A DNA stretch of 64,000 nt. It comes from Candidatus Babeliales bacterium. GTDB taxonomy: Bacteria; Babelota; Babeliae; Babelales; JANWKD01. The stretch is from the NCBI GenBank assembly GCA_963722255.1, contig CAVRJO010000001.1, positions 800,001-864,000 of the forward strand, written 5' to 3'. The position numbers were made by a program, and so were the translations under genes. A model generated the notes under the pieces. The model did no database searches. It had not been told where the DNA came from and saw nothing but the letters and a program-made list of their open reading frames with translations. Of this stretch, positions 6,991 to 49,303 are shown piece by piece (positions within the stretch are counted from its first letter, which is position 1; every line of letters begins with the position of its first letter).

Positions 6991-7473
6991 ATGAAAAGAA
7001 TAGTAACCGTTGTAGGAATCTTTATGAGTTTTATAGCAGCTTCTCATGCTATGGAAGAAGGAACAGGAAACTCTTTAACCGCATCTACCGATTGGGAAAT
7101 AGTTGGACAAAAAAATCAACCGTTACCGGAAATCTTTGAGCAAATCCCTCCAACCATTATTGTCAGTCATGGTCTTACAACTGATACAGCACCACAAAAT
7201 GAAGGTGAGAATGGACCCCAGAAAGAAGAAAAAGCCGATCATCAACAATTAATTCAAGAACCACAAATAGCTGATATTCATAGTGAACTATCTGTACCCA
7301 AATCTCACTATCGCATTCCTCCTTTAAAAGACCTTTATCAAAGCATCTTAGCAACTATCACCGGTAATCCATGGTATCAGAATAGGACAGCTCGCTATTC
7401 ATTGCTTGCCGGAACTGGAACCATTACCATTACCATTGGTGCTTTGGGATATTTTTATCTTTATAAGAAGTAA
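6991..7473 (+). CDS. Secreted hypothetical protein with C-terminal tail anchor
   Basis: Signal MKRIV...SHA|MEE; disordered acidic middle; C-terminal hydrophobic helix followed by KK-stop. Confidence 0.7.
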   Translation: MKRIVTVVGIFMSFIAASHAMEEGTGNSLTASTDWEIVGQKNQPLPEIFEQIPPTIIVSHGLTTDTAPQNEGENGPQKEEKADHQQLIQEPQIADIHSELSVPKSHYRIPPLKDLYQSILATITGNPWYQNRTARYSLLAGTGTITITIGALGYFYLYKK

Positions 7474-7595
7474 CACAATACAATTAATTTAAATAGAATA
7501 TAAATATAGGCGCTTGAACTTATTTTTATGTATGATATACTTAATTTTACTAGCATAGTATCTAATTTATAAACTAGTAATTAAATGGGGTTATC

Positions 7596-8312
7596 GTGGT
7601 TATTAAAAATATTCAAAAAGCTTTGCTTATCTCTTCTTTTTTTATAGGCATTAATGCATTTTCTTCATCACAAGCATTAGATCTAAATTCATTTAAAAAC
7701 CAGCCTACTTATACAGCAACTCAAATAACTGCTTGTTCTATTGGCATCTTCCTTGCATGCGAATTCATGCTATTTTCCTATAACAAAATTTCCGAATATA
7801 TTGAAAACAAAATCGTCAATGCCATTGCAGATTCAATTATTTTAGCTGTTACACCACCTTCGCATCTTTCAACAAGATTAACAGAAGTTGATTACGCAAA
7901 AGCTTTACAAAAAAAAGCACGTTTGATTGTACTACGCAATAAGGTGCTTAAGGATCTAGTAATAGCCCTTAAAGATACTCATAATTTTTCTGTTGACCAC
8001 AAAAATGCTCTGCAAGGACAACTAAGAGCAGCGATAACATTCTTTTCAAGCATTGACCGTATACGCCAACAAAATCCCTATGAAAAAGAGTATAGTTTAT
8101 CGTTCTTAGATAGATATATAGCTAATCAAATTGTTTCTTCTTGCATTCTTTTGGCAAAACCAGATGCTGAATGTACCTCTAAAGAGCTTCAAGAAAAAAA
8201 GTCAAAAGTTACTCGAAGGAATAAAGTCATCGAAGAATTAAAGCTTAGAGCTTGTGAACATATTTTTTTTAGCACAATTAACATGATAGATCTATTTATA
8301 GCGCCATTATAA
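7596..8312 (+). CDS. Hypothetical membrane/secreted protein
   Basis: 238-aa ORF, GGGG RBS before GTG, signal-like N-terminus and a second hydrophobic segment. Confidence 0.65.
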   Translation: MVIKNIQKALLISSFFIGINAFSSSQALDLNSFKNQPTYTATQITACSIGIFLACEFMLFSYNKISEYIENKIVNAIADSIILAVTPPSHLSTRLTEVDYAKALQKKARLIVLRNKVLKDLVIALKDTHNFSVDHKNALQGQLRAAITFFSSIDRIRQQNPYEKEYSLSFLDRYIANQIVSSCILLAKPDAECTSKELQEKKSKVTRRNKVIEELKLRACEHIFFSTINMIDLFIAPL

Positions 8313-10517
8313 TGTCTCAACCAAATTCTTTGTCGGCCGCAATTCTTTACTTTGTGCATGTTCTTCAAAACCAAGCTTAATAATAAGATCAATAAAATCC
8401 ATTGGCTTAATACCAACTTCAGCAGCCTGATGAAAAATGCAGGTAGCAGGGGTCATGCCGGGCAGCGTATTAATTTCTAAGGTAACAACTCGTTGACGAC
8501 CGGTAGGGCTTTGCTGTTCATTTTGGTAAAAACAGTCAATGCGTGCATAACCTTTTGCTCCAACTGCTTTATAAATCTTTTCCATTGTTGTTTGTACAAA
8601 TCGCAAAGCTTCTGAGGGAAGATTGGCAGGGGTTTGGTTTTCACCGGCTCCGGGTAAAAACTTTTCCTCAATTGATAAAATATCGTGCTGGGCAATGGCT
8701 TGACTTGGTGGTAATGCACGGACTTCATGGTTACCAATAACACCAACAGTTAACTCAGTTCCTTTAATAAGTTCTTCAACTAAAAGATGCGATTTTTTTG
8801 TTGTTGCAAAAGTTGTCGTAACAAACTCAGCAAGCTCTTCAAGAGATTCTGCTTTAGCAACCAAAACACTACACCCATCATCATGAGGTTTTATAATACA
8901 GGGGAATATAATCTTTGCTGCAATCTGATCGAGAATTTCTTGTTTGGCAACAAACCAATCTTGTGCAGAAATAAATACCGAATCGGGAACATCAAAGCCT
9001 TCTGAGCGCAAAAAAGCATTTGTTTCATATTTATTCATACATAATGCGCTCGCGAGCACCCCTGAACCATTATAGGCAATCCCAAGCATTTCTAGTGTAC
9101 CCTGAATGCAGCCATTTTCTCCTTCTCCACCATGTAAACCGATAAATGCAAAATCGATAAGCTGTGGTAAGTCATTCCATGGCACCAACGTTGCTTGACT
9201 CAAATCATTTTCAATCTCTTTAGTTGAATTGCGCACTAAAATCTTTTCATCAATCTGATAAAGTTCTAATGAACTTGTTACAAAAAGCGCAATGGGTTCA
9301 TACGATTCGGGTGATAATTTATACAGAATATTACGACCCGATTCTAACGAAATCTCCTTTTCATTGGAACGTCCGCCAAGCAGAACACCGATTCGTTTTT
9401 TTTGCACATTACTTTGCATAGTTTTACCTTGTTGTAAAGGAAGCATAAAATCTGAATGTGTATGTCGTAACTCATTTTCTATCAAATAATTAATAACCTG
9501 CGTATGATTCATATTTATTTCAGCAGCTTGACGAAATAAAAAACTTGAAGGACTCATACCTGAAAGACTATTGGGATCAATAATAACAACATCGCCAGTG
9601 GGCGTTAAAAAACCGTCAATACGCGCCATGGTTAAATGCAATGCACGCATAACTTCTAAACAGGTCTGTTGTATTTTTGTAATTGATTCATTGCTACACC
9701 GCGCCGGTGTAAATTTTGTTGCTCTTCCCGGCATATATTTTTGATCATAATCGAATATATCTGATTCAGGAATAACTTCTGTTGGCGGTAAAACTAGATA
9801 ATCATTATGCTCTAAATTGCCAAGTATAATACACGCAAACTCCATGCCTTCTATTTTTTGCTCGATTACGACATCTTGCATACGTCGCTCATCAATGATT
9901 GCCGCTTTATGAACTGCAGATAGGAGTTCATCCAATGTTTGTACAAGTGATACGCCAAGACTTGAGCCTTCAAGCGCCGGTTTTACAACAAGAGGAAAAT
10001 GAAGTGAATATTCATCAAGTCGCTTTTTAAGAAATTCCCTTGAAAGTTTAGTAGATTCTGATGAAGCAATGGTCAAACCAGAAGCAACTTGAATACCACG
10101 ATGCTCTAAAAACTTTTTTTGCATCACTTTATTCATCGAAAGAGAGCTACCAAAAACCTTTGAGCCCAAATAGGGAATTTGCAATACCTCTAAAAATCCC
10201 TGCAATGTGCCATCTTCAGCGTAAGCACCATGCAATGCAATATAAACAAAATCAACGATTTTTTTTAAATCATCCCATCGTAATTTCTGCGCTTCTGTTG
10301 CTAAGCGATGCTCAAAATCAGTAATTTTACCGCGATATAAAAATCTCCATGGTAGCTCATATAAAATTCCATTGTGCGTTTGAAAGATGGGAATAATCTC
10401 ATAACGCGATGTATCAAGATGATCACAAATTGTTCTGCCGGAATTAAATGAAACTTCTCGCTCTATAGATTTACCACCCATTAAAACGCCAACACGAATT
10501 TTTTGCATAGATACCAC
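8307..10517 (-). CDS. ddl: D-alanine--D-alanine ligase with two tandem ATP-grasp Ddl domains
   Basis: Two copies of GGxSxE(R/K)E(V/I)SxxSG, LHG...EDG/ENG..QG.LE, MNK, VKP/IKP, ARID; the second copy has LEINTLPG. Confidence 0.9.
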   Translation of the reverse strand: MVSMQKIRVGVLMGGKSIEREVSFNSGRTICDHLDTSRYEIIPIFQTHNGILYELPWRFLYRGKITDFEHRLATEAQKLRWDDLKKIVDFVYIALHGAYAEDGTLQGFLEVLQIPYLGSKVFGSSLSMNKVMQKKFLEHRGIQVASGLTIASSESTKLSREFLKKRLDEYSLHFPLVVKPALEGSSLGVSLVQTLDELLSAVHKAAIIDERRMQDVVIEQKIEGMEFACIILGNLEHNDYLVLPPTEVIPESDIFDYDQKYMPGRATKFTPARCSNESITKIQQTCLEVMRALHLTMARIDGFLTPTGDVVIIDPNSLSGMSPSSFLFRQAAEINMNHTQVINYLIENELRHTHSDFMLPLQQGKTMQSNVQKKRIGVLLGGRSNEKEISLESGRNILYKLSPESYEPIALFVTSSLELYQIDEKILVRNSTKEIENDLSQATLVPWNDLPQLIDFAFIGLHGGEGENGCIQGTLEMLGIAYNGSGVLASALCMNKYETNAFLRSEGFDVPDSVFISAQDWFVAKQEILDQIAAKIIFPCIIKPHDDGCSVLVAKAESLEELAEFVTTTFATTKKSHLLVEELIKGTELTVGVIGNHEVRALPPSQAIAQHDILSIEEKFLPGAGENQTPANLPSEALRFVQTTMEKIYKAVGAKGYARIDCFYQNEQQSPTGRQRVVTLEINTLPGMTPATCIFHQAAEVGIKPMDFIDLIIKLGFEEHAQSKELRPTKNLVETL

Positions 10518-10602
10518 GTTAGTTATTTCAGTTTTTTTGTTAAAATCATTGGCTTCAGTGTATAACTTTTTTTACGGTGTATCAAAAATCAAATCCTTGT
10601 TA

Positions 10603-11178
10603 CTAATTACTATTTTTACTATTTTTAATTTCGTTCTGATATTCACTATAGGCTTCTACCGCTAGTCGATTAAGCTCTATCATATGAACCTTTTTTCTTT
10701 TTAATATTTCTTTAACTTTTTCATTTGATTCCAACTTAATCGAATTATCAATAATTTTTATCATTACATTATTTGTATTGTTGTTTATATATAAATGATG
10801 CCTTAGAAATGGCCAAGCAAAACTAGGAAGCTCTGTTATAAACTCAATAGTGTAAATAATTGTAGTCAAATCTATTGCGACTTGTTTTAAATTTTCTTGG
10901 CATTTTTTTGAATATAGCAATGCTTCAAATGTAAGAAGCAGCACTTCCCGTACATTATTTTCACAAGACTTTGCATATTTTTCACCAAGTTTGGCACCAA
11001 TCTCATCAACATGCCTTGTAACGCTCGACCAAGCATTAAACAGTTCCTTTAAATCGTCAGTTTTCAATATCTCCACAAACTTGCTTGTGTCTTGATACAA
11101 TTGCTCTTTATTTTCCATTGCCTGTAACAAACTGAAAAAATTCAAAATAAAAACGGCAGATACCAAAATTCGTTTCAT
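10603..11178 (-). CDS. Secreted helical hypothetical protein
   Basis: AGGAA RBS before ATG 11178; signal MKRILV...LQA|MEN. Confidence 0.7.
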   Translation of the reverse strand: MKRILVSAVFILNFFSLLQAMENKEQLYQDTSKFVEILKTDDLKELFNAWSSVTRHVDEIGAKLGEKYAKSCENNVREVLLLTFEALLYSKKCQENLKQVAIDLTTIIYTIEFITELPSFAWPFLRHHLYINNNTNNVMIKIIDNSIKLESNEKVKEILKRKKVHMIELNRLAVEAYSEYQNEIKNSKNSN

Positions 11179-11442: not shown

Positions 11443-12675
11443 ATGAAGTTATCATTTATAATATCTCTTTACTCATTAATCTTCATTTTTTCTTCACTAT
11501 TCTGTATGAAAAAAGAAGATCCAAAAATTCCAAAGGTTACCGCGAGCATGCATCTTTCATTTATTGAAGCATTGCTGGCAGGAGGAAATTTTTGTGTTCA
11601 TACCGATTCTGATATGCTGGAATTCAAACATTTTAAAAAAGAAAAACATTTTTTGTTTCCCATCGATGAACTTGAAGCCTTAACAGGAACTGATGATATT
11701 TTTTCTGTAAAAGATCCAACAGCAGGCTCTATTCATCCAAAATTCATCAAACCATATAACGTCATTAAAAAGCTAATGCTTGAAGTGCAGCATAAACGAT
11801 TGTGTGACTTTAATGCAATACAAGATTATTCTTTGCTTGCAGACGATGAAATCAATGTTGTAAGACAACAAAATCGTAAACGATTACAAAAAGCATTATC
11901 GGAAAAAAATAGTGCAAAAATCGCAGAAGCATGTCCTACATTCCTCTGTGAAGGCTATGATTGTTTAATTCAAGAACCAAGACTTAACGGGCATCTTGAA
12001 AAAATTAAAGAACCTTGCTTGATTAGGGAAAAATTTGCAATAAAAATCCCTCATCTTAAATATTTTATATCTTTTTTTGATGCTGCAATTAATAGCCAAA
12101 ATTTCCATATCGATTCTGAAAAACAGACCATACAGTTTAAGCATTTCAAAAAAGATAAACTTCTTATTGCCACCTTATTTGTACATATCGATACTATTCA
12201 TCAACTTTTTGCTGAGAGCATTATTCTTAATGATATTGCTCACTATCTTGAAGCCAACATTTCTTGCAAAAAAGATATCATTCAAAAGTTATCACTTTTA
12301 AAGAAAAGACAAAGAAAAATGTTTATTGCAGTCCTAAGATTGACTCGCTACTTTGAAAAACCTTTTGCCTTTTCTGATAAGCGATCGGAATTAAAAAGAA
12401 AGCTTAAAACCATGACTCCTGAACAACGAGAACTTTTAGATGGATTTAGTAATATCACAAGGAAACAACCCAAAGGTAGTGAAAATAGAAAATTACACGT
12501 ATACGCAGGCGAAGTTGTCAAAAAAATACAAAATCAAGACAAATTCCGCATGGTAATGGATGAAAGAAAAGTTGATCATCTTGCAGAATTAAAACTACCC
12601 CTTGCAATAGAATTCATTCCTTTTCAAGAAGAGTTTGAAGCATTAGAAGCTGAAGTTGAAAAAATTATGCAATAA
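11443..12675 (+). CDS. Secreted hypothetical protein
   Basis: 410-aa ORF, AAGGA RBS, signal ...LFC|MKK. Confidence 0.7.
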   Translation: MKLSFIISLYSLIFIFSSLFCMKKEDPKIPKVTASMHLSFIEALLAGGNFCVHTDSDMLEFKHFKKEKHFLFPIDELEALTGTDDIFSVKDPTAGSIHPKFIKPYNVIKKLMLEVQHKRLCDFNAIQDYSLLADDEINVVRQQNRKRLQKALSEKNSAKIAEACPTFLCEGYDCLIQEPRLNGHLEKIKEPCLIREKFAIKIPHLKYFISFFDAAINSQNFHIDSEKQTIQFKHFKKDKLLIATLFVHIDTIHQLFAESIILNDIAHYLEANISCKKDIIQKLSLLKKRQRKMFIAVLRLTRYFEKPFAFSDKRSELKRKLKTMTPEQRELLDGFSNITRKQPKGSENRKLHVYAGEVVKKIQNQDKFRMVMDERKVDHLAELKLPLAIEFIPFQEEFEALEAEVEKIMQ

Positions 12676-12715: not shown

Positions 12716-14035
12716 TTAATGAAATAATGAATCTTGCAAAGGCTTTGATTCAAAATATTCATGAAAACAAGATGGTAAATCTTTGTAAGAAACTCTTGAT
12801 GTTGCAGAGGTATAGTCATCAGCACAAAAGGTATTCCAAAATAAAATTGTATCATGCTGAGAGCCATTTCTAGAAACATCAGATAATAATCCTGCAAAAG
12901 CCTTACCAGAATAAACACCATCTAAAAGATCTGATTCTTTCTCTCTAAGGAGCTTTATTGCTTCAATGCCTTCTTGTGTAAACAATGCATATCCGTTACC
13001 GGTAAAATCATGCAAAATATTGAGCTCATTTTCATCAAAAGGGAATAAAGCGAACGAAGAATCGGCATTATGCAACAACTCATTTGTTTCTTCAAACAGC
13101 CTCTTTATTTTATCAAGCTGCGCTCTTTGATCTTCAGGCTCCACTGAAATTCCAATTAATTTACTTTTTATGCCTGCAGCTTTTAATCCGAGCAATAAGC
13201 CTACATAGGTGCCACAGCTACCAACAGGAATATAGATTGTAGTGGGCTCTTTGAGCTCATGGTTATCAATCTGCTCTTTAAGTTCAAATGCAGCATTAAC
13301 ATATCCTAAAATTCCCAAAGCGCATGATCCACCTGTAGGAATAACATAAGGAAATTTTCCATGCTCAAGTTTGTGCGCTAAAAAATGATGCGTTGCTGAA
13401 ATAGCTCGTAATTTATTGGTTGGTGCAAAAATCATCGTAGCTTCTGCATCTGCATCCAATAATAAATTTCGCTGCACTACTAATGAGTTTGCTTGAGGCA
13501 AAAGCATCAAAATAGACTGTAATCCAACTTCTTTGGCATACACCGCTGTTGCTAATGCATGATTTGAACCAACGCAGCCAAACGTCATAACTGCATCAGC
13601 CTTTTTTGCAACTGCATTAGCAAGCAAAAATTCCAGTTTGCGTACTTTATTGCCACCAAACAATATTGTCTCTTCGTTTATTTTTTTTCCAGTCAAATCA
13701 TCTCGCTTCATTAAAAGCTCCGCAACTCCCAATTTATTAGCTATGTTTGGATATTGAGTAATTGGCGTCGGTAATGTTGCCAAAGAAGCATATGAAATCG
13801 ATTGAGAAAGTAATGGAAAGTTTTTAAACAAGGGGATAGTTGTTTTCTCTTTCTGATCAAAAATAGGTAATTCTTCATTGTCGGTGGATGCAAGCTTGCT
13901 AAGATCTGCAAAAATTGCTTCAGGTAAAATTGGTAGTAATGCACGTTTCAAATCAGCAATTGCCTGCTGATCATGATTCATGCAGTTTAATGGCATTAAA
14001 AAGAACAATAAAAATCCATATAATAAAGTAAACAT
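12716..14035 (-). CDS. PLP-dependent D-cysteine desulfhydrase / ACC deaminase family enzyme with signal peptide
   Basis: PTPI, KRDDL..GGNKVRKLEFLL, SNHA, IPTGGS..G.LGY, GSCGT, LDGVYSGKA; N-terminal signal ...LNC|MNH. Confidence 0.85.
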   Translation of the reverse strand: MFTLLYGFLLFFLMPLNCMNHDQQAIADLKRALLPILPEAIFADLSKLASTDNEELPIFDQKEKTTIPLFKNFPLLSQSISYASLATLPTPITQYPNIANKLGVAELLMKRDDLTGKKINEETILFGGNKVRKLEFLLANAVAKKADAVMTFGCVGSNHALATAVYAKEVGLQSILMLLPQANSLVVQRNLLLDADAEATMIFAPTNKLRAISATHHFLAHKLEHGKFPYVIPTGGSCALGILGYVNAAFELKEQIDNHELKEPTTIYIPVGSCGTYVGLLLGLKAAGIKSKLIGISVEPEDQRAQLDKIKRLFEETNELLHNADSSFALFPFDENELNILHDFTGNGYALFTQEGIEAIKLLREKESDLLDGVYSGKAFAGLLSDVSRNGSQHDTILFWNTFCADDYTSATSRVSYKDLPSCFHEYFESKPLQDSLFH

Positions 14036-14197: not shown

Positions 14198-14659
14198 ATG
14201 ATTAGTATGAAAAAAATAATGAGCGTTATTCTTATTATGTTCTTATGTTTTATTCAATTTTCACTACATGCAATGAATGATGAAGCAAAAAAAAGACGTC
14301 GAGAAAACAGGAGAATTAGAAAAATTATACGAGAAAAAAATAAAGAGACTCGTGTCCTAGAGCTTCTTGATCAATGCAAACAGGGCAATAAAAATATACG
14401 AAGCTATAGAGTCAATGAACAGACTCTTGTAAGTTATGATGGTAAAAGCACTCTTATCACAGTCTATGATAAAAAGGGCCAAGCATTACATCGAAGCTTC
14501 AAAGATTATATTAAACTTATGCAAGAAGAAAGCAGCGATGAGGATGAACCTACTATTGACCTTGAATATTCAAATCGTGAAGATGGCCCTACAAGCGAAA
14601 AAGAACAGTGCCTTAAGAAAGACGAGAAATCAAAAAGATGTTGTTGCGTTCTTATTTAA
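14198..14659 (+). CDS. Secreted hypothetical protein with C-terminal CaaX motif
   Basis: Signal ...LHA|MND; basic KKRRRENRRIRK; ends KKDEKSKRCCCVLI-stop. Confidence 0.75.
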   Translation: MISMKKIMSVILIMFLCFIQFSLHAMNDEAKKRRRENRRIRKIIREKNKETRVLELLDQCKQGNKNIRSYRVNEQTLVSYDGKSTLITVYDKKGQALHRSFKDYIKLMQEESSDEDEPTIDLEYSNREDGPTSEKEQCLKKDEKSKRCCCVLI

Positions 14660-18215: not shown

Positions 18216-18234
18216 TGTAATAATACCTCAAAAA

Positions 18235-18991: not shown

Positions 18992-19823
18992 ATGAAGAAA
19001 TTCATGTATCTGAGCTTAACTGGATTAATGGTATTGAGCCCAACAACCAACTGCATGGAACAGATCATAACAGCAGATAAAGAAGCAGAAATACCCTCAA
19101 AAGGGGAATTAATTAATCAATTCATGGAAGCAGCTCTTGCAGTATCGACTCTCAACCGTTATGCTGTTGCGGAATCTGCAGAATTTAGTTCCATGCAAGA
19201 AATATATGGAACCATTAAAAAAGTTAACAACGGAAATAAAGAACAAACCCAAGCAGAGCTGTTAGATGGATATCACAGCGGAGATGAAGATTATTACAAA
19301 AAGGAAATCGAAAATGCCGACAAAACGTTGCAAAAAATTAGATCCATTGATGCAATTTTAGCCTTCAGAACCCAACCAAAATTGGCAGATAATCAAAAAA
19401 AATTTGAAAAATTAACACGACAACAAAATGAATTAAATGAGTCTTATAAAGATATATTGAACAAAAGAGCTAATAACAAAGCAGAATTAGCTAAAATAGC
19501 AACAGAAAAGGAAGTTCTTGAACAAGCCCGCACAATTCTTTACTAATAACAGAGAGCAAGAAAATTCATTACTGCACGCACGCAAAGAAAAAATAACCGC
19601 AGACATAGCAGCAGTTGATGAACGTATTGCAAAACACAAAAATGCAACTTACGCTTTACTCGATGCACCAGTAAGCGAAAGCGTTAAGGAAGCTGGAATT
19701 GAAGATAGTATAGAGATTGAAAAAAGTTTAGCTGAAGAAAAAATGCAATTACAGGAAAAACTCAATAAAGTTGAAGCTGTAATTGAAAACTTAAAACCTA
19801 AACAAGGTTGGTTTGGTTGGTAA
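18992..19823 (+). pseudogene. Secreted coiled-coil protein split by an apparent +1 frameshift near 19538-19546
   Basis: ORF 18992..19546 (signal ...TNC|MEQ, GGGAG RBS) overlaps 19518..19823. Both are coiled-coil-like, and removing one T at CTTTAC joins them into 276 aa. Confidence 0.55.
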
Positions 19824-20246: not shown

Positions 20247-21256
20247 TTAAATATTCATTCCTTTAGGTTTTGGATGATCTTTTTTATGATGCTGTTTCAA
20301 AGCTCCCTGTGAACCGTTTGATTTTCCGCATAATTTACAGATATATGCTTTAGAATGATCTACTTTAGTATGCCGACGCAAAAGTGATGCATCCCGTGCG
20401 TTATAACCACATAAACGACAAATTAATTTATTCCCTTGAGCCGGATGTTCAGCCTTATAATGCTGCTGCAAAGCTCCCTTAGAACCTATCGATTTTCCGC
20501 ATAATAGACAGGTATATGCTTTCACATGATCTGCTTTGCTATGCTGTTGCAAAAACGAAAGATTGAATGCTTCATAACCACATAAACCACAAATTAATCT
20601 ATTCCCTTGGGCAGAATGTTCAGCCCTATAATGCTGCAGTGTAGCTCCCTGGGAATGAAGAACTTTGTTACATGTTCTACAAGTAAATTGCTTATGGAGA
20701 GCTTTTATATGTAATTCAAACGTATACTTAAATGGAGAAACATATTCACAGCGATCGCAACTATATAATGTACCAATACTAGTTTTTCTCTTTTTTTTAC
20801 ACCTTCTTGATCATCACAATAAAGTTGTAAGTCCTTTGTCGCTTCAAAAATATCTGTACTGTTTTCTCCAGGCTCTACTAAATTATCAACTTCATCAAAA
20901 ACGGATATTTTTCTTTTAACCCTTAATCTAATATCATTGGATTCAAAATCAGCAGCAAAAGCATCAGATTTAGGATCATACAGCAGATAATTTATTGCAT
21001 CATTAGACATTTCAGCGTCAATACCAATTCCAGTTAGTTCGCAACATTCTTGGATTGACTGCGGCCAATAAGAAACATCATCCTTACCTGGTCCAAGCAA
21101 AAGCTCAGCCACTTCATGAATTGACATCTTGCCCAAATCATTATTAATCTGAAATCTTTCTGAAGAACTGGTATCTAAAAAACTTTTTGGAACATTTTCC
21201 ATACATACAATTCCATAGTTGATTAAAAATAGCACTATTACCTTATATTTATTCAT
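20247..21256 (-). pseudogene. Secreted C2H2 zinc-finger protein (6 fingers) interrupted by a -1 frameshift at an A8 tract (20791-20798)
   Basis: Adding one A gives VKKKRKTSIGTLYSCDRCEY..., open through to ORF 20247..20552 and colinear with paralogue 21418..22758; 336 aa when restored. Confidence 0.85.
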
Positions 21257-21417: not shown

Positions 21418-22758
21418 TTATGTTCTTGGATGATCTTTTTTGTGATGCTGCCGCAAAGCTCCATTAGAACCGTTCGGCTTTCCGCATAATTGACAAGCAT
21501 ATAATTTCGTATGGTCTGCTTTATTATGTCGTCTCAACATTGCCGGATTGGCTGCTTTATAACCGCATATACTACAAATTGACTTATTCCCTTGAGTTGG
21601 ATGTTCAGCCTTATAGTGTTGCTTCAAAGCACCTTCGGAATAACATATTTTATTGCATACCTTACAAGTGTATAATTTATGAGGAGCTTTTATATGTTCA
21701 TTAAAAGCTCCTTTGGTTTTAGTAACATATTCACACCTATCACAACTATATAATGCATTTGAACCAACATTAATATTTTTTTTTATAAGAGAAGCATGTT
21801 CTTGAGGAGTCACAGCTTTTCTTTTCTTTTCTATATAATCTTGTTTTAATGCAAGTTTACCATCATGCCATCGTAATTCTTTAGCAATCAAAGCATTTTT
21901 TGCTCTACGTTCAGTGGATTCATACTCTATATTACAAGCATCATGCCCACACTCAGGCTTATCAATCCATATATCATCACGAGTTATCATTTCTGTGTTT
22001 AACCCATATTCTTCAATAGTAGATTTTTTAAAATGGCTCGTTAAATGCTGCAATAAAGCCTCAAAAGAATAGCATTTTTTACTACAAACCCTACAATCAT
22101 ATACATTTTTATAATTTGCGTTATCATTTTTTTTCGATTCTGTAGTCGCAGTTTTAACGTAACCAAGTATAGCAGTGTCTTTTGGAATAAAATGTTTATT
22201 CTTATAATGATTTATAAGAAACTTTTCAGAACTACATACTTTCTTGCATAGGTTACATTCATATGGTTTAAGATGCGTATACTTATGACGCTTGAAAAAC
22301 CCTTCAAAAACAGTGTAATATTCGCAATGTTCACAGGGATAAAAGGAACCTGCACCGACACCACTATTTTGTACAAGATCATGAGTAGCACGTTCATCAA
22401 TAATTTTTCTTTTCTTTTTTACACTTTCATGATCATCAGTATAATGCTGTAAATTAAGTGCAGATTCAGAACTATCAATTTTATCAAAATCAGGTGCCTC
22501 TCTTGTAGCTCCGTGCCTGAGTTCAAGAGATGCAAAGCCGGTAGCAAAAATAGTTTTAGGCTCACTTGTATCAAACGGAGTTGTTACTCCTACATCAATT
22601 CCACAAAATAACTCATAGGATTCTTGAATTGATTGTTGCCATGAATCTTCATCGACAAATTCATCGAGAAAAGATTCCATACAGAGCATTTCACACGAAA
22701 AAAATAAAAGCAGTAAAAATCGTTTTTTGATTATCCCAACGGAACCTTTGCATTCCAT
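21418..22758 (-). CDS. Secreted eukaryote-like C2H2 zinc-finger protein (7 fingers) with NLS-like motifs
   Basis: Seven CxxC-x12-H-x3/4-H units; KKKRK and KKRK; acidic N-terminal region; signal ...MLC|MES; exact start uncertain. Confidence 0.85.
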   Translation of the reverse strand: MECKGSVGIIKKRFLLLLFFSCEMLCMESFLDEFVDEDSWQQSIQESYELFCGIDVGVTTPFDTSEPKTIFATGFASLELRHGATREAPDFDKIDSSESALNLQHYTDDHESVKKKRKIIDERATHDLVQNSGVGAGSFYPCEHCEYYTVFEGFFKRHKYTHLKPYECNLCKKVCSSEKFLINHYKNKHFIPKDTAILGYVKTATTESKKNDNANYKNVYDCRVCSKKCYSFEALLQHLTSHFKKSTIEEYGLNTEMITRDDIWIDKPECGHDACNIEYESTERRAKNALIAKELRWHDGKLALKQDYIEKKRKAVTPQEHASLIKKNINVGSNALYSCDRCEYVTKTKGAFNEHIKAPHKLYTCKVCNKICYSEGALKQHYKAEHPTQGNKSICSICGYKAANPAMLRRHNKADHTKLYACQLCGKPNGSNGALRQHHKKDHPRT

Positions 22759-30942: not shown

Positions 30943-32460
30943 ATGAGAAGACTATGGTTATTATTTTTTATTTTAATTCTCTATAACGTTTCAATAACGG
31001 CAATTGATTTTTTCGATTTTTCCGATCGATCTGACAGAACAACATCCTGCACTGAGGTTTTCGGATTTTGTCCAATAACCTGTCTTCCTAATAGATCTTT
31101 TATGTTTACACGGCCAATATATAGAGACATTGGTGTTCAAAAGCCAATATGGCAAGAATTTGTATTCAATCCATGCGAAACTTTTGCAGTTCAAGTTGCT
31201 CCAATCTATCAAAAATCATTTGGATCACGAAGTTTAGCAAAATATTTTTTATTTAATGAGCAATATGATTTGCTCATTAAAGGTGATAATGCCATTAATA
31301 ATAATCCAAATACACGTGACGTTAGAGCAGAGTGGATCGGTCTTCCGAGTAATTATATCGGAAGCTTTTCTGTTCATCCACATCAAAAACAGTTCGGAAT
31401 TTGGATTGAAGGAAAAATGCCTTTAAGCTTTTGCTTTGATCATGAATTTTTTGAATTTTTATGGGTAGGCTTGGCCGTACCTTATCAGATTGTAGAAAAC
31501 AATATTAGACCAACGCAAACACCACCCATAAATCCTGCGCCTTCTTTTCCACGTGATGCTCTTGAAGCACTTTCCAATCCAGCACTTCTTTTTGGCAAAT
31601 TTGGTGGCAAAAAAAAAGTGAGTGGATTTGCTGAAATTGATTTTAAATTAGGTTACAACCTTCTCAATCAAGATTATTTTCAAATAGGTCTTTACTCTAT
31701 GCTTGTTGTCCCTTTACACAAAGGCGTAAAGCAGCATTTTGTTTTTGAACCATTTATAGGCAACGATCGTCATTTTGGTTATGGTAATGGCGTTACCTTT
31801 AAATTACCACTTCTTTGCGATGCAGAATGCCAACTATTTTCATTTTTTGCCTATTTTGAAAACATATACTTTTTTCGGCATGTTGAACGTAGATGTTTTG
31901 ATTTGATTAGTAATCCATGGAGCCGCTATATGCTCCTCAACAGTAAAGAAGGTGCTGTAAATGTTCCCGCTATCAATATTTTTACAAGAAAGGTTCGAGC
32001 ACGCTGCTATAATATGCTTGACCTCTTAACAGGATTTGATTGGGAAGTTGGCAATGTTCAAGTAGAGGTTGCTTATGGATTGTGGGCTCGTGGAAGAGAG
32101 CAATTAAAGCTTGCTGATTGCTTCCCTGCTGATTACGCCTTTGCAGGCGTAGGCTTTTTGCCTAACTCAAAAATACCTGCAAGTGCAAGCCTTAGTACAA
32201 TCTCAGAACAGGCACCAAATGACGTCAATGCCACAACGGGCCAGCAACAGTTTGTTCCCATAACCGTACAAGATTTAGATCTCAATTCCGGTGCAGCTCG
32301 AGGAGCATTATGCCATCGCGGGCACTTTACCGTTAGCTATCTTTATCAAGGTGATATAATTGAAGGTTTTATGTCTTTGGGAGGCTATATTGAAATTTCT
32401 CAATATAATTCAGCGCTTTCAAATTGGGGAATTTGGGGAAAGATAGGACTTGCACTATAA
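30943..32460 (+). CDS. Exported protein, probable outer-membrane beta-barrel
   Basis: Signal peptide; aromatic-rich alternating beta-strands; terminal strand WGIWGKIGLAL. Confidence 0.55.
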   Translation: MRRLWLLFFILILYNVSITAIDFFDFSDRSDRTTSCTEVFGFCPITCLPNRSFMFTRPIYRDIGVQKPIWQEFVFNPCETFAVQVAPIYQKSFGSRSLAKYFLFNEQYDLLIKGDNAINNNPNTRDVRAEWIGLPSNYIGSFSVHPHQKQFGIWIEGKMPLSFCFDHEFFEFLWVGLAVPYQIVENNIRPTQTPPINPAPSFPRDALEALSNPALLFGKFGGKKKVSGFAEIDFKLGYNLLNQDYFQIGLYSMLVVPLHKGVKQHFVFEPFIGNDRHFGYGNGVTFKLPLLCDAECQLFSFFAYFENIYFFRHVERRCFDLISNPWSRYMLLNSKEGAVNVPAINIFTRKVRARCYNMLDLLTGFDWEVGNVQVEVAYGLWARGREQLKLADCFPADYAFAGVGFLPNSKIPASASLSTISEQAPNDVNATTGQQQFVPITVQDLDLNSGAARGALCHRGHFTVSYLYQGDIIEGFMSLGGYIEISQYNSALSNWGIWGKIGLAL

Positions 32461-32464: not shown

Positions 32465-32922
32465 CTTTTCTAAGCATTATTATTGTTAGTTATTTTTTAA
32501 ATTTATTCGTTTGATTCAACATTTTGGGTTGTAGTTTCAATTTCATTAATCACAAAAGAAACTGATTCTTCACCATCAACCAACTTTAATGTCGCAGGTG
32601 TTCCGACTATTACAGGTTGAGCAACCAAAGCTTCATTTTCACCTTGAACTACATAAAAATTAAATTCTACTACCAAAATGCCTTCTTCATTTTTAGCCAT
32701 TTTAGTAATAACTACTTTGAAAGTTTTACCATTAAGTTCAAATGTTATTTGTGAAAGTGATTCAGATAACACAACAGAGTGAGATGCAGTTTGATTGCCA
32801 ATTGTATGTATTGTTTCAAAAGCAATATCTGCTTTTGCGATTGATGAAGCCAATAAAATAATTGATAATAAGAGCTTTTTCATAGGTTCTCCCTAAAGTA
32901 ATAAAAATAATGCTTAGAAAAG
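32465..32922. repeat. 27-bp inverted repeats (17 bp perfect) enclosing gene 32503..32883
   Basis: CTTTTCTAAGCATTATT at 32465-32481 and AATAATGCTTAGAAAAG at 32906-32922; 24/27 identity when extended inwards. Confidence 0.85.
32503..32883 (-). CDS. Small exported beta-rich protein
   Basis: GGGAG RBS; signal MKKLLL...AKA|DIA. Confidence 0.8.
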   Translation of the reverse strand: MKKLLLSIILLASSIAKADIAFETIHTIGNQTASHSVVLSESLSQITFELNGKTFKVVITKMAKNEEGILVVEFNFYVVQGENEALVAQPVIVGTPATLKLVDGEESVSFVINEIETTTQNVESNE

Positions 32923-35859: not shown

Positions 35860-36213
35860 TTAGTCTTTCTTTTCCTTAGCCTTCTTGTTCGCTTGGTACA
35901 GCTGCACAGTTATAGCTGCAACCCCAGCGCAGAAAGCGGCACCGACAGGAGCGACTAGAGTCCCAACAACGAACATATCCGGTCTTTCTAAAGGAAATTG
36001 ATTAAATAGTATGCAACAAGAACCTAAGCAAACAGCACCTGATATAGCAGCTTCGCAACAACTATGTTCATCATACTCTATTTGATTAGAGGGCATTTTT
36101 TTATGTTCTTTGCACATCTCTTTCTTTTCGCAACGTTCCATTGATGATATTTCAAAACTGGTGCACAACAAAATAGGCAAAAACAACAGACTTAAAAATC
36201 TTCTTTTTTTCAT
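35860..36213 (-). CDS. Secreted small Cys-rich protein with hydrophobic hairpin
   Basis: AAGGAG RBS; signal ...ISS|MER; two hydrophobic segments and a basic tail. Confidence 0.7.
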   Translation of the reverse strand: MKKRRFLSLLFLPILLCTSFEISSMERCEKKEMCKEHKKMPSNQIEYDEHSCCEAAISGAVCLGSCCILFNQFPLERPDMFVVGTLVAPVGAAFCAGVAAITVQLYQANKKAKEKKD

Positions 36214-43115: not shown

Positions 43116-45335
43116 ATGAAACGTAAATGGTTTGGTCGGTTTGTAGTAAGCTTATATTTAATCAGTAATGTAGGGATCTATGCGTATGAAGATGAGAAAA
43201 ATGATATCCACCTTGATGATGATATTCTACTTAATGCATCCCAGCCACTGACCAAAATTGGACGTCCTTATGATGTTTTTAATAATGATAATGCGGAATT
43301 TGATTTAGCAAACCAAGAGGCTCCGATTAATAATACGGTTGCTGAATCTTATGCTGCAATTGAAACAACTGATGAGGGTGTAGATTTTTCTTTGCAAGAT
43401 GCTAATGGTAAAAAAAATTTTACACAAGAGGCCATGAGTTTTGGATGGAAAAACCTAACCGGTAAGTTCCAAATTAAATTTAAGCCGGAGACCTTTTTTG
43501 CCCGCAATGCTAATTTGTTGAATAATGCAAATCGAGAGGATTTTGTTCAGTTCAGTAGAAGTACGCTTGATGTTAACTTTGCTCTTGATTATGGCAAAGA
43601 TTGCTATGGGTATAATGTAGTAGACTTCTTTATGACAATGCGTAACAAGTCAATTTGGGGAAATCCTGAAAGTATTGTGCGCTCAACGGTTACAAAAATT
43701 AAAACATTAGAGAGTCTAGATTCGGGCCATGCCCATTTCATTACTCGTCAGCTGCTATGGATTCGTGAATTATGGTTTAATTTTAGCGTTAACGATGCCT
43801 TAAATCTGCCTTTTAAATCAAAAATATTTTTCATGTTAGGGGCATTTCCTTTTGAGCTTGGCCGTGGTATTGCGCTTGGTTCAGCATATGCGGTTAACCC
43901 GGGAGTTCTAGGATTTTTCTCTGATAATACTATTGATCAGTATGCATTTGGGTATAAATTGAACTCTGAATTTGTGCCAAATAAGTTGAGTCTAGATTTG
44001 TATGGTGCAATTTTACAAAATAAGGGCGATAGCTTTAATGCAACGGGTGAAAAGATATATGGTCAAAAATTTCGTCACTTATTACATCCTGCTCGTGGGC
44101 CTGGTCATGTAGATTTTGTAATTGCAACTCGTTTAAAATGGTTCCCCAAAAAAACGGAATGCACTGTTATCTCGTTTGAACCCTACCTTTTATATAATAA
44201 TAATCCGGAACAAAGTATTGAATTTTTAGCTGATGCGGCATCACGTTTGGGAACAGCCGGTTTGTCAGGAGAATTTGTATATAAGAATTTTGAATGTGGC
44301 TTTGATGGTGCAAAAAACTTTGGTGAGCAGCTTGTTTGGGGTTGGGATCGCAATGTTATCGATCGTGAAAACAGAACAGGGGTATTTACCTTAGTAAACA
44401 GTCAGGTTGTTACCGCTGATCCTTCGGTAAATCCAAAAGCGCCAAAAGTTGTATTTTCGCCAAATGATGCTAATGGAAAAAACATTCAAACCATTATTGA
44501 TACTTCGGCACAAGATGCTTCTCAAAATGGTAAATTAATCGGCAATGCTATTGATCCGCAAACAGGATTGCCTATTCAGTTATTTAATAGTCTTAATAGA
44601 TTTAGAAATCAGTATCGCAACAAACTCTTAGGATGGATGTTTGTAGCTGATGCAGGCTATTGGTTTTGTGACAGAACGTTCCGTATTGCCGGTGGTGGCG
44701 GAGTTGCTTCTGGAGATGAAGATCCAAATAAAGATATTCATAATCCAAATGATAGTAATGTTGATGGGGATTTCAAAGGCTTTATTGGCTTGCAGGAAAT
44801 TTACACAGGTAATGATAGGTTGCAAAGTGTGTTTTTATTAGGTGGTGCCGGAAGAATTCCTCGTCCATTAACGACGCCATCGCAAGCATCCAACGTTTTA
44901 GTTACGTTACCAACGGTTGTTTCAGGCTTTACCAATATAGTATTTACCGGTGGTTCATTATTGTGGACGCCGAAATTTGAAAGTAAACCATTTAAGCTTC
45001 GCCCAAACATTTTGTTCTATTGGCAGCAACATGCGACCAAAAAATTTGATATTGCAACAAAAATGAGCTCAATGGAGTTTGCACGTAACTTCTTAGGCAC
45101 AGAGCTTAATACCTTCTTTGATATAAACTTGTTGCGTGAGCTTAAACTTTTTGTTGTTGGTTCTGTCTTTATTCCCGGCGGCCATTTTACCGATATTAAA
45201 GGCACACCGCTTAATAGAGATCAGCAAAAGCTACTTGACCTATTGGATCCAACGGGCGTTGATATTGACCCAATTCCATTGCTTGGTAATGATACAGCGT
45301 ATACACTTAATATTGGATTAGAGTATAGATTTTAA
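43116..45335 (+). CDS. Probable outer-membrane beta-barrel protein
   Basis: Signal peptide; amphipathic strands; ASGD..P and LGTELN reminiscent of alginate-export-type barrels; C-terminal LNIGLEYRF (BAM-type terminal Phe). Confidence 0.65.
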   Translation: MKRKWFGRFVVSLYLISNVGIYAYEDEKNDIHLDDDILLNASQPLTKIGRPYDVFNNDNAEFDLANQEAPINNTVAESYAAIETTDEGVDFSLQDANGKKNFTQEAMSFGWKNLTGKFQIKFKPETFFARNANLLNNANREDFVQFSRSTLDVNFALDYGKDCYGYNVVDFFMTMRNKSIWGNPESIVRSTVTKIKTLESLDSGHAHFITRQLLWIRELWFNFSVNDALNLPFKSKIFFMLGAFPFELGRGIALGSAYAVNPGVLGFFSDNTIDQYAFGYKLNSEFVPNKLSLDLYGAILQNKGDSFNATGEKIYGQKFRHLLHPARGPGHVDFVIATRLKWFPKKTECTVISFEPYLLYNNNPEQSIEFLADAASRLGTAGLSGEFVYKNFECGFDGAKNFGEQLVWGWDRNVIDRENRTGVFTLVNSQVVTADPSVNPKAPKVVFSPNDANGKNIQTIIDTSAQDASQNGKLIGNAIDPQTGLPIQLFNSLNRFRNQYRNKLLGWMFVADAGYWFCDRTFRIAGGGGVASGDEDPNKDIHNPNDSNVDGDFKGFIGLQEIYTGNDRLQSVFLLGGAGRIPRPLTTPSQASNVLVTLPTVVSGFTNIVFTGGSLLWTPKFESKPFKLRPNILFYWQQHATKKFDIATKMSSMEFARNFLGTELNTFFDINLLRELKLFVVGSVFIPGGHFTDIKGTPLNRDQQKLLDLLDPTGVDIDPIPLLGNDTAYTLNIGLEYRF

Positions 45336-45543: not shown

Positions 45544-45759
45544 ATGAATAAAATTATTTATAGTTTAGGCTTATTGTTCTGTGTGTCAGCGCTTGAGTCT
45601 ATGCAGCAAGATAAACCGATAAAAGTCTCAAATAATCCAAAAGATAATTCGGTAGTGCTTAATAAAGAAGGACAATCGCAGAGAAAAATTAACACAGAAT
45701 GTGTATGTTGTGGCAAGGACGTAGATCATGTGATGAAGCTCTATCAAGAAAATCGGTAG
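45544..45759 (+). CDS. Small secreted hypothetical protein
   Basis: AAGGAG RBS; signal ...LES|MQQ; CVCC motif. Confidence 0.6.
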   Translation: MNKIIYSLGLLFCVSALESMQQDKPIKVSNNPKDNSVVLNKEGQSQRKINTECVCCGKDVDHVMKLYQENR

Positions 45760-45767
45760 TTTTGGAA

Positions 45768-45803
45768 GGGCGATTAAATTACTACAAAGAAATCGCCCCT
45801 TTT
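45768..45803. terminator. Intrinsic terminator between convergent genes
   Basis: GGGCGATT...AATCGCCC followed by CTTTT. Confidence 0.6.
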
Positions 45804-45818
45804 AATTTTTTAAGCCTC

Positions 45819-46352
45819 TTACTTGTTAAGCTTTATGAATTCTGAAGCCGCGGGCTCGTCACCTAGTTTTTTGATAATATTTGCCACAAAGTTTACGAAT
45901 TCTTGTTTTGTTTTAAAGCCTGCTGCAGAACGTAACGTGCCTCGAATATTGACTGGAATAAAACCAATTCCTTCAATATTGAATACAGATTCTTGGTTGC
46001 TGGTAAGAAAAATAACAAAATTTTTAAATATAAGATTTTTAGGGGACTGGTTAAGGCGTTTTATTATTTGTTCAGTTGTATTTTTATCGAAAGGGTAGAG
46101 AGGTCTATTAAAAATGTCATTTAAATATCCAGCTAAATCAACTAGTTTGCTACTAATGTTCTTTTCTATCTGATATTTGCCTTCATAAACATATGTTCCT
46201 ACCTTCATATTTTTAATGTCATTAATGATCACCCCAATTTTAATTAATCTGTTTACAACAAGATTTTCAGGCGTTTCTTTTTGTCCTGCATTCACTGATG
46301 TTATAAGAAGCCCGCTTAGTATAAGGCGCATTAATTTTATAGAATTTTTCAT
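45819..46352 (-). CDS. Exported hypothetical protein
   Basis: AGGAG RBS before ATG 46352; signal ...VNA|GQK. Confidence 0.65.
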   Translation of the reverse strand: MKNSIKLMRLILSGLLITSVNAGQKETPENLVVNRLIKIGVIINDIKNMKVGTYVYEGKYQIEKNISSKLVDLAGYLNDIFNRPLYPFDKNTTEQIIKRLNQSPKNLIFKNFVIFLTSNQESVFNIEGIGFIPVNIRGTLRSAAGFKTKQEFVNFVANIIKKLGDEPAASEFIKLNK

Positions 46353-46535
46353 GTTAAAATCTCCTGTTTTATCGATTAAAATTAGTTTTTTTAAAAGTAT
46401 ATCTATATTTGAGTATAATAAATTATTATTCAAATATTCAATAATACAAACAATAACTCATTATAACTCTGGAATTATCAAACTTAAAGATGGTACAATT
46501 TTTTGACTGGTTTAAAAGCACAAGGGAACTCTTTT

Positions 46536-46895
46536 ATGAATAAAATACAAGTAATGCTCTTATTAATGATGGTGTCTTTATCAAAATGTATGGAAAATGA
46601 ATTTCGGGAAGGTAGTAGTTCTTCATCAAGCACAGAACGCACTCAAGAAGGTTATTTAAGTGAAATTTTGGGTAGCGACTTGGATACGTTGTCTTCTGAT
46701 TCTCCGTTAACATCACCACGTGAATGTGATGAAAATCCGGTTGAAAAAACCGCTTTGTTTCCAAAAAAGATAACCGATAAAAGCTCGCTTTCTGATCAAG
46801 ATACCTCATGTATTTGTTGGTTATGTTGTTGCTTATTTTGTGCGACAAGAAAGAATGAGGGGGCGCAAGCGGTCTACAAGGCCATTGAGAAGTAA
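46536..46895 (+). CDS. Secreted Ser-rich protein with cysteine-string segment
   Basis: Signal ...SKC|MEN; SSSSSS, SP/TSP sites; CICWLCCCLFC. Confidence 0.7.
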   Translation: MNKIQVMLLLMMVSLSKCMENEFREGSSSSSSTERTQEGYLSEILGSDLDTLSSDSPLTSPRECDENPVEKTALFPKKITDKSSLSDQDTSCICWLCCCLFCATRKNEGAQAVYKAIEK

Positions 46896-46985
46896 GTTTT
46901 ATGAGCACCACGTTTTAACTCTTTAAAAAGATGCTATACTAAGTAAGTAAAAAATAATTAATTGTGCTTAGTGTAGAGAGCAACC

Positions 46986-48755: not shown

Positions 48756-48764
48756 TTTAATAAG

Positions 48765-48797
48765 AAAGAGACTTGTACTTTTTATACAGGTCTCTTT
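48765..48797. terminator. Terminator hairpin after aspS
   Basis: AAAGAGACTTGTA...TACAGGTCTCTTT. Confidence 0.65.
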
Positions 48798-48808
48798 AAA
48801 AAAGATTA

Positions 48809-49303
48809 TTATAAATTAGCCTTTTTACTTTGCTTGTTTTTGCTTGCTTTTATTTCGATAAATAGTTTGTAGTTAGGATTAGGCATTGTATCTTCCCATT
48901 TATGAAGTGAAGTTTTTTTTGCCAATGATGGATACATCGTATTGAGTATTTCTATTGCTTGCTTTGCATCATTAATATTTTGAAAATAGAGTTTGCTTTT
49001 TTTAATAGTATCAAAAGAAAGCCCATGTTTGCCTAATTTCCTTATGAGCTCTTTTGCAATTTCATGAGTTTGTGTATCGGCAGTTTTAGTTAGAACGGGG
49101 AATTGTATAATTTCTATTGGTTTTTGTGTTTCAAAGAGTAGTTCATTTTTTACTCTAAAAAGCTCTTCTGCTTTTTCATATAGTTTTTCTGCAGTATTGA
49201 TTATCGTATCTTCTATTTTTTTATACATGCCAAAGTTATTGCAATAAACAAAAAATATTAGGATCAATAAGATATAGTTGTTAATTATTTTCATGAGTTT
49301 CAC
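48809..49303 (-). CDS. Secreted protein with degenerate RidA/YjgF-like C-terminal domain
   Basis: Signal ...NFG|MYK; GLSFDTIKKSKLYFQNIND...YPSL...MPNPNYKLFIEIKA matches the Rid fold pattern. Confidence 0.55.
   Translation of the reverse strand: MKLMKIINNYILLILIFFVYCNNFGMYKKIEDTIINTAEKLYEKAEELFRVKNELLFETQKPIEIIQFPVLTKTADTQTHEIAKELIRKLGKHGLSFDTIKKSKLYFQNINDAKQAIEILNTMYPSLAKKTSLHKWEDTMPNPNYKLFIEIKASKNKQSKKANL

Follow-up and report, generated by a model that had tools for sequence, protein, structure and literature searches.

The 64,000-nucleotide window analysed here (C1:800001-864000) belongs to a Babeliales (Dependentiae/TM6) genome of 1,618,240 bp in two contigs with 34% G+C, and it encodes twelve proteins in which a Sec-type signal peptide is directly followed by a methionine and, in most of them, by Asp, Glu, Asn or Gln. 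We refer to this Met, at position +1 after the predicted cleavage site, and its neighbour at +2 as the tag. The twelve N-termini had been singled out in an earlier reading of the DNA (the original prediction), and all of them read as claimed there, each from the gene start given for it.

Most of the tagged genes encode orphans. The protein of 6991..7473 (plus strand), which has a hydrophobic C-terminal tail, reads MKRIV...ASHA and then MEE (Met at 7051), that of 10603..11178 (minus strand) reads SLLQA and then MEN (Met at 11118), and the 410-residue protein of 11443..12675 (plus strand) reads SSLFC and then MKK (Met at 11506); no Pfam match was found for any of the three. A Shine-Dalgarno-like (SD-like) motif is present upstream of 6991 and absent upstream of 7051, and the Cys at -1 of the 11443..12675 protein lies outside any lipobox. 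Further orphans are encoded at 14198..14659 (plus strand; FSLHA then MND, Met at 14273), a basic protein of 153 residues ending in the CaaX-like CCCVLI, at 18992..19546 (plus strand; PTTNC then MEQ, Met at 19055), at 20705..21256 (minus strand; YGIVC then MEN, Met at 21202), at 45544..45759 (plus strand; 71 residues, SALES then MQQ, Met at 45601) and at 46536..46895 (plus strand; SLSKC then MEN, Met at 46590), the last with the Cys string CICWLCCCLFC. The weakest member is the orphan of 48809..49303 (minus strand; CNNFG then MYK, Met at 49228), which has Tyr at +2 and starts with a GTG that no SD-like motif precedes; three codons further on lies an ATG with AAGG upstream.

The remaining three are a pyridoxal phosphate-dependent enzyme (PALP) at 12716..14035 (minus strand; MPLNC then MNH, Met at 13981), a small protein rich in Cys whose C-terminal part is hydrophobic at 35860..36213 (minus strand; FEISS then MER, Met at 36141), and a C2H2 zinc-finger protein with KKKRK stretches at 21418..22758 (minus strand; CEMLC then MES, Met at 22680). 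As had been described, the set thus includes proteins with C2H2 fingers and stretches resembling nuclear localization signals, a CCCVLI end, a tail anchor and a Cys string. Near the zinc-finger gene, a C2H2 open reading frame (ORF) of 101 residues without a signal peptide (20247-20552, minus strand) nearly matches the C-terminal end of the 446-residue 21418-22758 protein, and judging from this match it is probably a partial duplicate of its tagged neighbour.

We then considered the signature genome-wide. With a simple, heuristic codon-usage caller, 1,590 ORFs were called; both gene calls and signal-peptide calls come from custom heuristics and not from a trained predictor. Depending on the rule, 148 to 210 of these roughly 1,590 ORFs encode a Sec-type signal peptide, a small residue and then Met, which amounts to some 12% of the ORFs, or one gene in about eight, and to roughly half of the proteins with a clean signal peptide. 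The simplest count requires no cleavage prediction: Met stands directly before the first charged residue in 148 of the 868 ORFs with a hydrophobic N-terminal stretch (17%), against a background Met frequency of 1.6% in the proteome. The charged residue that follows is Glu in 111, Lys in 18, Asp in 11 and Arg in 8, and the residue preceding Met is A, S, G, C or T in 135 of the 148, before any filter on -1 was applied.

A site heuristic that scores -3, -1 and the distance from the hydrophobic core, and is blind to +1, gave the same picture. Among 812 signal-peptide-like ORFs, an over-permissive set, Met occupied +1 in 164 (binomial p ~1e-119 against 1.7%), with Ser as runner-up (75) and Met counts of 14-40 at the neighbouring offsets. 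The best -3/-1 site thus adjoins the Met directly, where the original prediction had placed the cut. A stricter rule yielded 186 ORFs in the Met (tagged) class and 177 in the non-Met (untagged) class, with -1 fixed by definition in the former and -1 and -3 in the latter, while the widest rule, which accepts Met-(E/D/N/Q) also a few residues away from the predicted site, gave 210 proteins. A separate, strict signal-peptide filter gives low scores to G, S or C at -1 and to Leu at -3 and so drops many tagged proteins; percentages based on it understate the tag.

The preference extends to the next residue. After the tag Met (n=186), +2 is E in 100, N in 22, Q in 17, K in 12 and D in 10, so that D/E/N/Q, the set which the original prediction had named as that of the eukaryotic N-terminal acetyltransferase NatB, accounts for 149 of 186 (80%) compared with 57 of 177 in the untagged class. 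Assuming a cut before the Met, these 149 would have a NatB-type N-terminus. Hydrophobic residues at +2 are scarce (8/186). Since D/E/N/Q is so much less common at +2 in the non-Met class, Met and its neighbour behave as one unit and not as a general requirement of export. These counts confirm that the Met-acidic signature is real, and bigger than first reported.

In their general anatomy the tagged proteins resemble signal peptidase I substrates of Gram-negative bacteria. They have a positive n-region, an uncharged core of roughly 12-15 residues (estimated from the median length), a total length of about 18-30 residues with a median of 22 in both classes, a small neutral residue at -1, often a small one at -3, and L, I, S, A, V or T at -3 in most. 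Two Peptidase_S26 paralogues score above the cut-off in the genome (C2:137986-138699, minus strand, and C2:701964-702665, plus strand). A position profile of the 146 tagged proteins without further hydrophobic segments showed Leu and Ile favoured at -3 (L 26%, I 15%, S 14%, A 12%, V 10%), Phe, Tyr and Asn at -2 (F 22%, Y 16%, N 11%; 0.92 bits versus 0.27 in the untagged class), and A 42%, S 22%, G 19%, C 10% and T 7% at -1, the last partly by construction of the class. Following Met at +1, position +2 was E in 55%, N in 12%, Q in 11%, D in 6% and K in 4%; +3 and +4 were polar and charged, with little information past +4. Classical signal-peptide sets mostly have Ala at +1 and seldom Met. The tagged class differs from them in its preferences at -3 and -2 and in its first two mature residues, which are near-fixed as Met and then D/E/N/Q.

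The tag is not confined to one family. BLASTP (E<=1e-5) grouped 210 mature regions into 170 clusters, with 151 singletons and a largest cluster of 19 members, which rules out a single expanded paralogous family. A motif at the DNA level is likewise ruled out: synonymous codons track genome usage, with GAA:GAG at +2 being 92:24 versus 18344:4798 in the genome, and the -1 codons are diverse. The tag therefore acts at the protein level, and selection operates there and not on the DNA; some 170 protein families with no relation to one another gained or retained it independently. A lipoprotein signal ([LVI][ASTVI][GAS]C) is ruled out too, as a relaxed lipobox matches only 1 of the 16 tagged sequences in which Cys stands at -1. 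An RR pattern as in Tat signals occurs in 3/186 tagged proteins, and the order of a type IV prepilin signal is not seen, the hydrophobic stretch preceding the Met and polar sequence following it.

To see which proteins carry the tag, mature regions were scanned against Pfam for 106 tagged proteins (of 186) and 92 untagged ones (of 177), namely those located on C1:1-794333 or in the window, which left out contig C2 and the ends of C1. The tagged matches (E<=1e-3) comprise 8 ankyrin proteins, 9 WD40/propeller proteins (two of these with BTB/Skp1), 2 Sel1/TPR, 2 DnaJ, 3 GNAT, 1 C2H2 and 1 RING protein, one each of thioredoxin, LigD_N, beta-lactamase family, oxidoreductase and secretin (a borderline case, NNT then MAS), single weak matches to PilA, ubiquitin and RXYLT1_C, and a single DUF433; 71 of the 106 have no Pfam family. 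The untagged matches (E<=1e-5) are secretin, amidase_3, ABC substrate-binding, PEBP, thioredoxins/DsbD, hydrolases and peptidases of types M15, M48 and C39-like, together with 5 ankyrin, 2 WD40, DOT1 and one GNAT protein. The untagged signal-peptide proteins thus include enzymes of eukaryotic type: besides the DOT1-like histone methyltransferase just listed, these are glycosyltransferase 61 and glycosyltransferases of NodZ/FUT8-like and STELLO-like kind.

The ratio of repeat or eukaryote-type to envelope-type families is 23:3 with the tag and 8:13 without it (Fisher p=0.0005). Envelope-type families are thus rarer with Met at +1 than without it (3 tagged versus 13 untagged), and the tag is preferentially found on host-directed-looking cargo while resident envelope proteins mostly lack it. 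CaaX boxes are prenylated by eukaryotic enzymes only, as in Legionella effectors, so that proteins ending in one are expected to reach the host cytosol. When the N-termini of 19 ORFs with a CaaX-like end were read by eye, 13 had a signal peptide and Met, 1 had a signal peptide without Met and 5 had no signal peptide, that is, 13 of 14 CaaX-like signal-peptide proteins are tagged (p=0.0009 against one half). With the automatic classes, whose filters many CaaX proteins do not pass, the same comparison gave only p=0.06. Neither tail anchors (12/186 tagged, 6/177 untagged) nor Cys runs (2 tagged, 0 untagged) differed significantly between the automatic classes, and the absence of a Pfam match did not separate them either (p=0.24 in a first count with unequal E-value limits). 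The effector class proposed in the original prediction is therefore partly supported, by the enrichment of eukaryote-type and CaaX proteins and the depletion of envelope proteins; the tag is not an exclusive mark, some ankyrin proteins being untagged.

The eight exported or envelope-type proteins of the window that had been listed as lacking Met also all read as claimed. They are a 739-residue outer-membrane-type protein (43116..45335, plus strand; IYA then YED) and a 505-residue protein (30943..32460, plus strand; ITA then IDF), both without a Pfam match, an exported protein at 32503..32883 (minus strand; AKA then DIA), three small exported paralogue-like proteins at 51072..52293 (plus strand; NFA then QEN, IEA then QVK, VDA then GTI), an exported protein with a weak BclA_C-like match at 6184..6768 (minus strand; IQA then AQQ), and a secretin at 54049-56445 (minus strand; VDA then QPE).

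This secretin is part of a type II secretion/type IV pilus-like cluster at 54049..62598 (minus strand), identified from the translations and from Pfam matches to Secretin/Secretin_N, PilM_2 and T2SSC. The cluster further encodes a PilM-like protein (PilM_2; 57018-58652), a second secretin with the borderline Met mentioned above (NNT then MAS; 58649-61474), GspC (T2SSC; 61474-62598), all on the minus strand, and a small membrane protein. All Dependentiae (TM6) genomes are reported, in the text available of the comparative study, to have two gspD copies and no pilQ (PMC4776705), with which the two secretins of the window agree. From its gene content, the cluster is likely the outer-membrane route for exported proteins. 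Two other observations concern the window itself: by reading of its translation, an ORF of 736 residues (8307-10517, minus strand) contains two D-alanine-D-alanine ligase-like halves in tandem, and a small overlapping ORF pair of 137 and 97 residues (49460-50154, minus strand), the second with a nucleotidyltransferase-like GSxxRGxxxxxSDxD, looks by eye like a toxin-antitoxin pair of the HEPN/MNT type.

A repeat of the analysis in related genomes, which had been proposed together with the signature, was made with parts of 13 other Babeliales genomes, the samples being small and partly picked for their ankyrin content. The tag recurs in several Babeliales families. Per loose signal-peptide-like ORF, it was found in 58 of 450 across 800 kb of G066, which belongs to the same genus (+2: E 40, D 8, K 8, R 2), and in 200-kb samples in 12 of 117 in G001 (family f2; 9 Glu, 3 Asp), 17 of 117 in G005 (f3; 11 Asp, 3 Glu, 3 Lys), 4 of 127 in G040 (f6; +2 mixed) and 2 of 97 in G047 (f5; Asp), while 100 kb of G048 (f9) contained 2 of 42 (Asp). 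The first 200 kb of E. coli K-12 had the tag in 0/44 loose and 0/12 strict signal-peptide ORFs. Among islands chosen for many ankyrin genes, an ankyrin-rich effector island of an f11 genome other than G041 encodes four tagged proteins (Met-Asn, Met-Asn, Met-Gln, Met-Lys), and islands of f1, f8 and f17 also have the tag. When one ankyrin protein per genome was inspected, a signal peptide followed by Met was present in 10 of the 27 readable cases from 30 genomes. The tag is thus widespread in the order, its prevalence varies, and the preference at +2 shifts between lineages. In a genome of family f19 (G076:C1:115001-135000), about 14 tandem ankyrin genes encode proteins without signal peptides that nearly all start with Met-Gln-x-Phe-Ser...Ala-Trp; these may be effectors exported by a non-Sec route, or may not be secreted.

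Between the genome studied here and G066, the +1 Met was kept in 18 of 34 pairs of a tagged protein and its signal-peptide-bearing best homologue. It was the best conserved position from -10 to +12, where the others ranged from 9% to 44%, and was kept more often than internal Mets of the same pairs (40/168; Fisher p=0.0014). Of 38 tagged proteins with a G066 homologue, the automatic rule gave 16 whose homologue is tagged too, and reading by eye added several, compared with 5 of 63 for untagged proteins; the tag class is heritable. The tagged genes are the faster evolving ones, with a homologue at E<=1e-8 in these 800 kb for 38/186 tagged versus 63/177 untagged proteins, and in nucleotide synteny to the same-genus genome housekeeping genes alone matched (67-74% identity), the tagged orphans remaining unmatched.

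Our preferred explanation is that these proteins have an ordinary cleavable Sec signal peptide with a selected two-residue element, Met and then Asp, Glu, Asn or Gln. Signal peptidase I would cut between the small -1 residue and the Met, so that about one protein in eight would emerge from the inner membrane with Met-(D/E/N/Q) at its N-terminus, and the cargo would cross the outer membrane by the type II secretion system (T2SS) encoded in the window. In the host cytosol, the tag would present a eukaryote-style N-terminus of the kind acetylated by NatB and would not be read as destabilising by the Arg/N-degron pathway, and it may thereby set effector stability or interactions. Taken as a whole, with both the selected tag and its host-side role, this explanation comes close to being probable.

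The part that concerns function is more tentative. In NatB substrates, Met precedes Asp, Glu, Asn or Gln. An N-terminal Met is no Arg/N-degron when the next residue is not hydrophobic, and before a hydrophobic residue it would make a Met-hydrophobic degron. A role of the new N-terminus on the host side is favoured over sorting at the outer membrane because the +2 set equals that of NatB substrates and hydrophobic residues at +2 are rare, because the tag is optional and variable in prevalence while the secretion machine is conserved, and because the f19 ankyrin proteins, which have no signal peptide, start with Met-Gln. On these sequence grounds, we regard such a role as quite possible. That the dipeptide is a linear host-effector tag mimicking NatB-type N-termini, read either by the host's N-terminal acetylation or N-degron machinery or by the bacterial T2SS so as to settle the fate of hundreds of unrelated effectors, is a possibility about which we are rather doubtful.

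Several observations weigh against the preferred explanation. NatB is co-translational and ribosome-bound, so acetylation of an imported bacterial protein would be unusual, and Ala, Ser, Thr, Gly and Val at +1 also evade the Arg/N-degron pathway, so that stability alone leaves the choice of Met unexplained. The tag is not exclusive: the 5 ankyrin, 2 WD40 and 1 DOT1 proteins listed above have a signal peptide without it, and it is missing from 17 of the 27 ankyrin proteins read across the order. It was also absent from the 98 loose signal-peptide-like ORFs in 200 kb of G041 (f11) and the 39 in 100 kb of G010 (f7), where, as in all the 100-200 kb samples, the first part of a contig was taken and a zero does not show absence. 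Nor is the Met invariant. A PALP homologue in another Babeliales metagenome-assembled genome has a signal peptide ending in SAHA followed by YVS, and two adjacent paralogues of G073 with near-identical signal peptides (ORFs 1776-3611 and 3632-5791 within G073:C3:64001-84000, minus strand) differ at +1, one reading AFG then MQRIKN and the other VFG then LQRIRN. Further hydrophobic segments occur in 35/170 tagged proteins, which may stay in the bacterial envelope. Finally, the Pfam limits of the two classes were unequal, stricter by two orders of magnitude for the untagged one, and at least 7 of the 92 untagged proteins scanned, SecA, GlnA and Gmk among them, were wrongly called as having a signal peptide.

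Ranked second is a tag read on the bacterial side, in which N-terminal Met-(D/E/N/Q) would be recognised in the periplasm by the T2SS, for instance by GspC or the secretin, or during vesicle loading, and would separate cargo that crosses the outer membrane from resident envelope proteins. The distribution over Pfam families, with effector-like ones tagged and envelope-type ones mostly not, is what such sorting would give, and the window encodes the machine, including GspC and two secretins, a number that recurs across TM6 genomes; the T2SS is also the only secretion system reported for Babela (PMC4378268) and for the phylum (PMC4378268, PMC4776705). The preference for F, Y or N at -2 suggests a recognised surface around the site. 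Elsewhere, however, T2SS substrates are recognised folded and have no linear signal, and the exact D/E/N/Q set has no known periplasmic meaning. Moreover, the machine is conserved across the order, yet the prevalence of the tag ranges from ~0 to ~15% of signal-peptide-like ORFs, and many ankyrin proteins with a signal peptide are untagged. Overall, we consider sorting by the tag unlikely, though it deserves attention.

The tag could also be a relic of gene birth, where a signal peptide was added 5' of a complete ORF and the old start Met was left behind without function. Orphans dominate the tagged class, its genes evolve fast, the f19 ankyrin proteins show what a Met-Gln start without a signal peptide looks like, and the Met is sometimes lost, as in the G073 pair and the PALP homologue. 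A relic should, however, resemble ordinary starts. At the starts of 735 genes for non-exported proteins, K follows the initial Met in 178, N in 93 and E in only 37, whereas Glu stands after the tag Met in 100 of 186 cases and Lys, which is most common at ordinary starts, is depleted. Retention of the +1 Met exceeds that of internal Mets, the small residue before it in 135/148 makes the cleavage site adjoin it precisely, and the same class of dipeptide turns up across about 170 protein families unrelated to each other and in several families of Babeliales. We consider this origin distinctly unlikely.

In fourth place, one of the two S26 paralogues might prefer Met-acidic residues at P1'-P2' and thus process a precursor set of its own. 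Many Babeliales genomes have 2-3 Peptidase_S26 matches (range 1-3), and the tagged class has its own preferences at -3 and -2, but G001 has a single match and yet a strong tag, and a peptidase preference alone leaves the link to cargo unexplained; we consider a dedicated peptidase improbable.

The last two alternatives can be dismissed as extremely improbable. That the tag Met is the true or an alternative start, the signal peptide being an artefact of ORF extension or one of two isoforms, accords with an ATG codon in 164/164 and was among the refuting conditions named in the original prediction, but an SD-like motif at -18 to -4 is found at 87/164 signal-peptide starts, much as at ordinary long gene starts (311/735), and at only 3/164 tag Mets, fewer than at random internal ATGs (51/724), with 11/12 gene starts versus 0/12 tag Mets in the window, and the segments upstream have full signal-peptide anatomy. 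That the tag reflects shared descent, a DNA-level motif or lipoproteins with a lipidated Cys before the Met, for which some paralogue pairs, the Cys at -1 in 16/186 and the presence of Lgt and LspA genes could be cited, is contradicted by the clusters, codons and lipobox counts given above, and among 19 canonical lipobox proteins Met comes next only once.

The signature has functional counterparts in known systems. The PEXEL motif of Plasmodium and the RxLR motif of oomycetes are likewise short linear motifs downstream of a signal peptide, shared by hundreds of host-directed proteins that are unrelated and evolve fast. Processed PEXEL leaves an N-acetylated x-E/Q/D N-terminus, to which Met-(D/E/N/Q), predicted here from sequence, can be likened in position and chemistry. 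Both motifs belong to eukaryotic pathogens, act through the endoplasmic reticulum and dedicated proteases, and place Arg/Leu some 15-30 residues past the cut. The Babeliales tag, in contrast, adjoins a predicted signal peptidase site in a bacterium, and the likeness is one of function only, without homology; no PEXEL or RxLR motif was found in the tagged proteins, whose positions +3 to +12 carry 0.08-0.55 bits without an Arg/Leu pattern. A second parallel is offered by the Lol +2 rule and the lipoprotein export signal of Bacteroidota, where the residues right after the cut fix the final compartment of a protein with a lipidated Cys. The tagged proteins differ in that they have no lipobox and start with Met. 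With NatB, the tag shares the substrate definition at +2, while NatB itself acts on nascent chains. The signature is thus a signal peptide with an adjacent secondary tag, and a member of no lipobox, Tat, prepilin, PEXEL/RxLR or Lol-type class.

Within the phylum, the secretomes of Babela and Chromulinavorax are likewise rich in signal-peptide proteins, including most ankyrin proteins, with the T2SS as sole secretion system. As far as the available text of these papers goes, 79 of 126 ankyrin proteins of Babela have a signal peptide (PMC4378268), and signal peptides are present in 44% of the coding sequences of Chromulinavorax (PMC6561590). In the same text, the word 'methionine' has 0 occurrences in the Babela paper and no such signature is mentioned (PMC4378268), no Met or Met-acidic signature is mentioned in the Chromulinavorax paper (PMC6561590), and 'signal peptide' has 0 occurrences in the TM6 comparative paper (PMC4776705). 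No description of a Met or Met-acidic signature was found in the full-text literature as far as accessible, supplements and subscription-only papers being outside this scope, and within it the signature appears to be undescribed.

The finding bears on how effectors are separated from envelope proteins in the Dependentiae, in which nearly half of the proteins have export signals and type II secretion is the sole known route. This widespread phylum of protist parasites is almost uncultured, and a tag on about 12% of the proteome would make it possible to list candidate effectors by rule from any Babeliales genome. Experiments would gain a handle as well, a pair of residues to mutate and a single N-terminus to seek by mass spectrometry, and the Met/Leu paralogues of G073 provide a natural variant pair. 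If the tag is only a relic, it still records the creation of exported proteins at a high rate in these genomes. If it is a linear tag, it would be a bacterial counterpart of PEXEL and RxLR, and effectors could be predicted from sequence throughout an uncultured phylum. If its role on the host side is true, it would mean that a bacterium shapes the N-termini of its secreted proteins to fit eukaryotic N-terminal biology.

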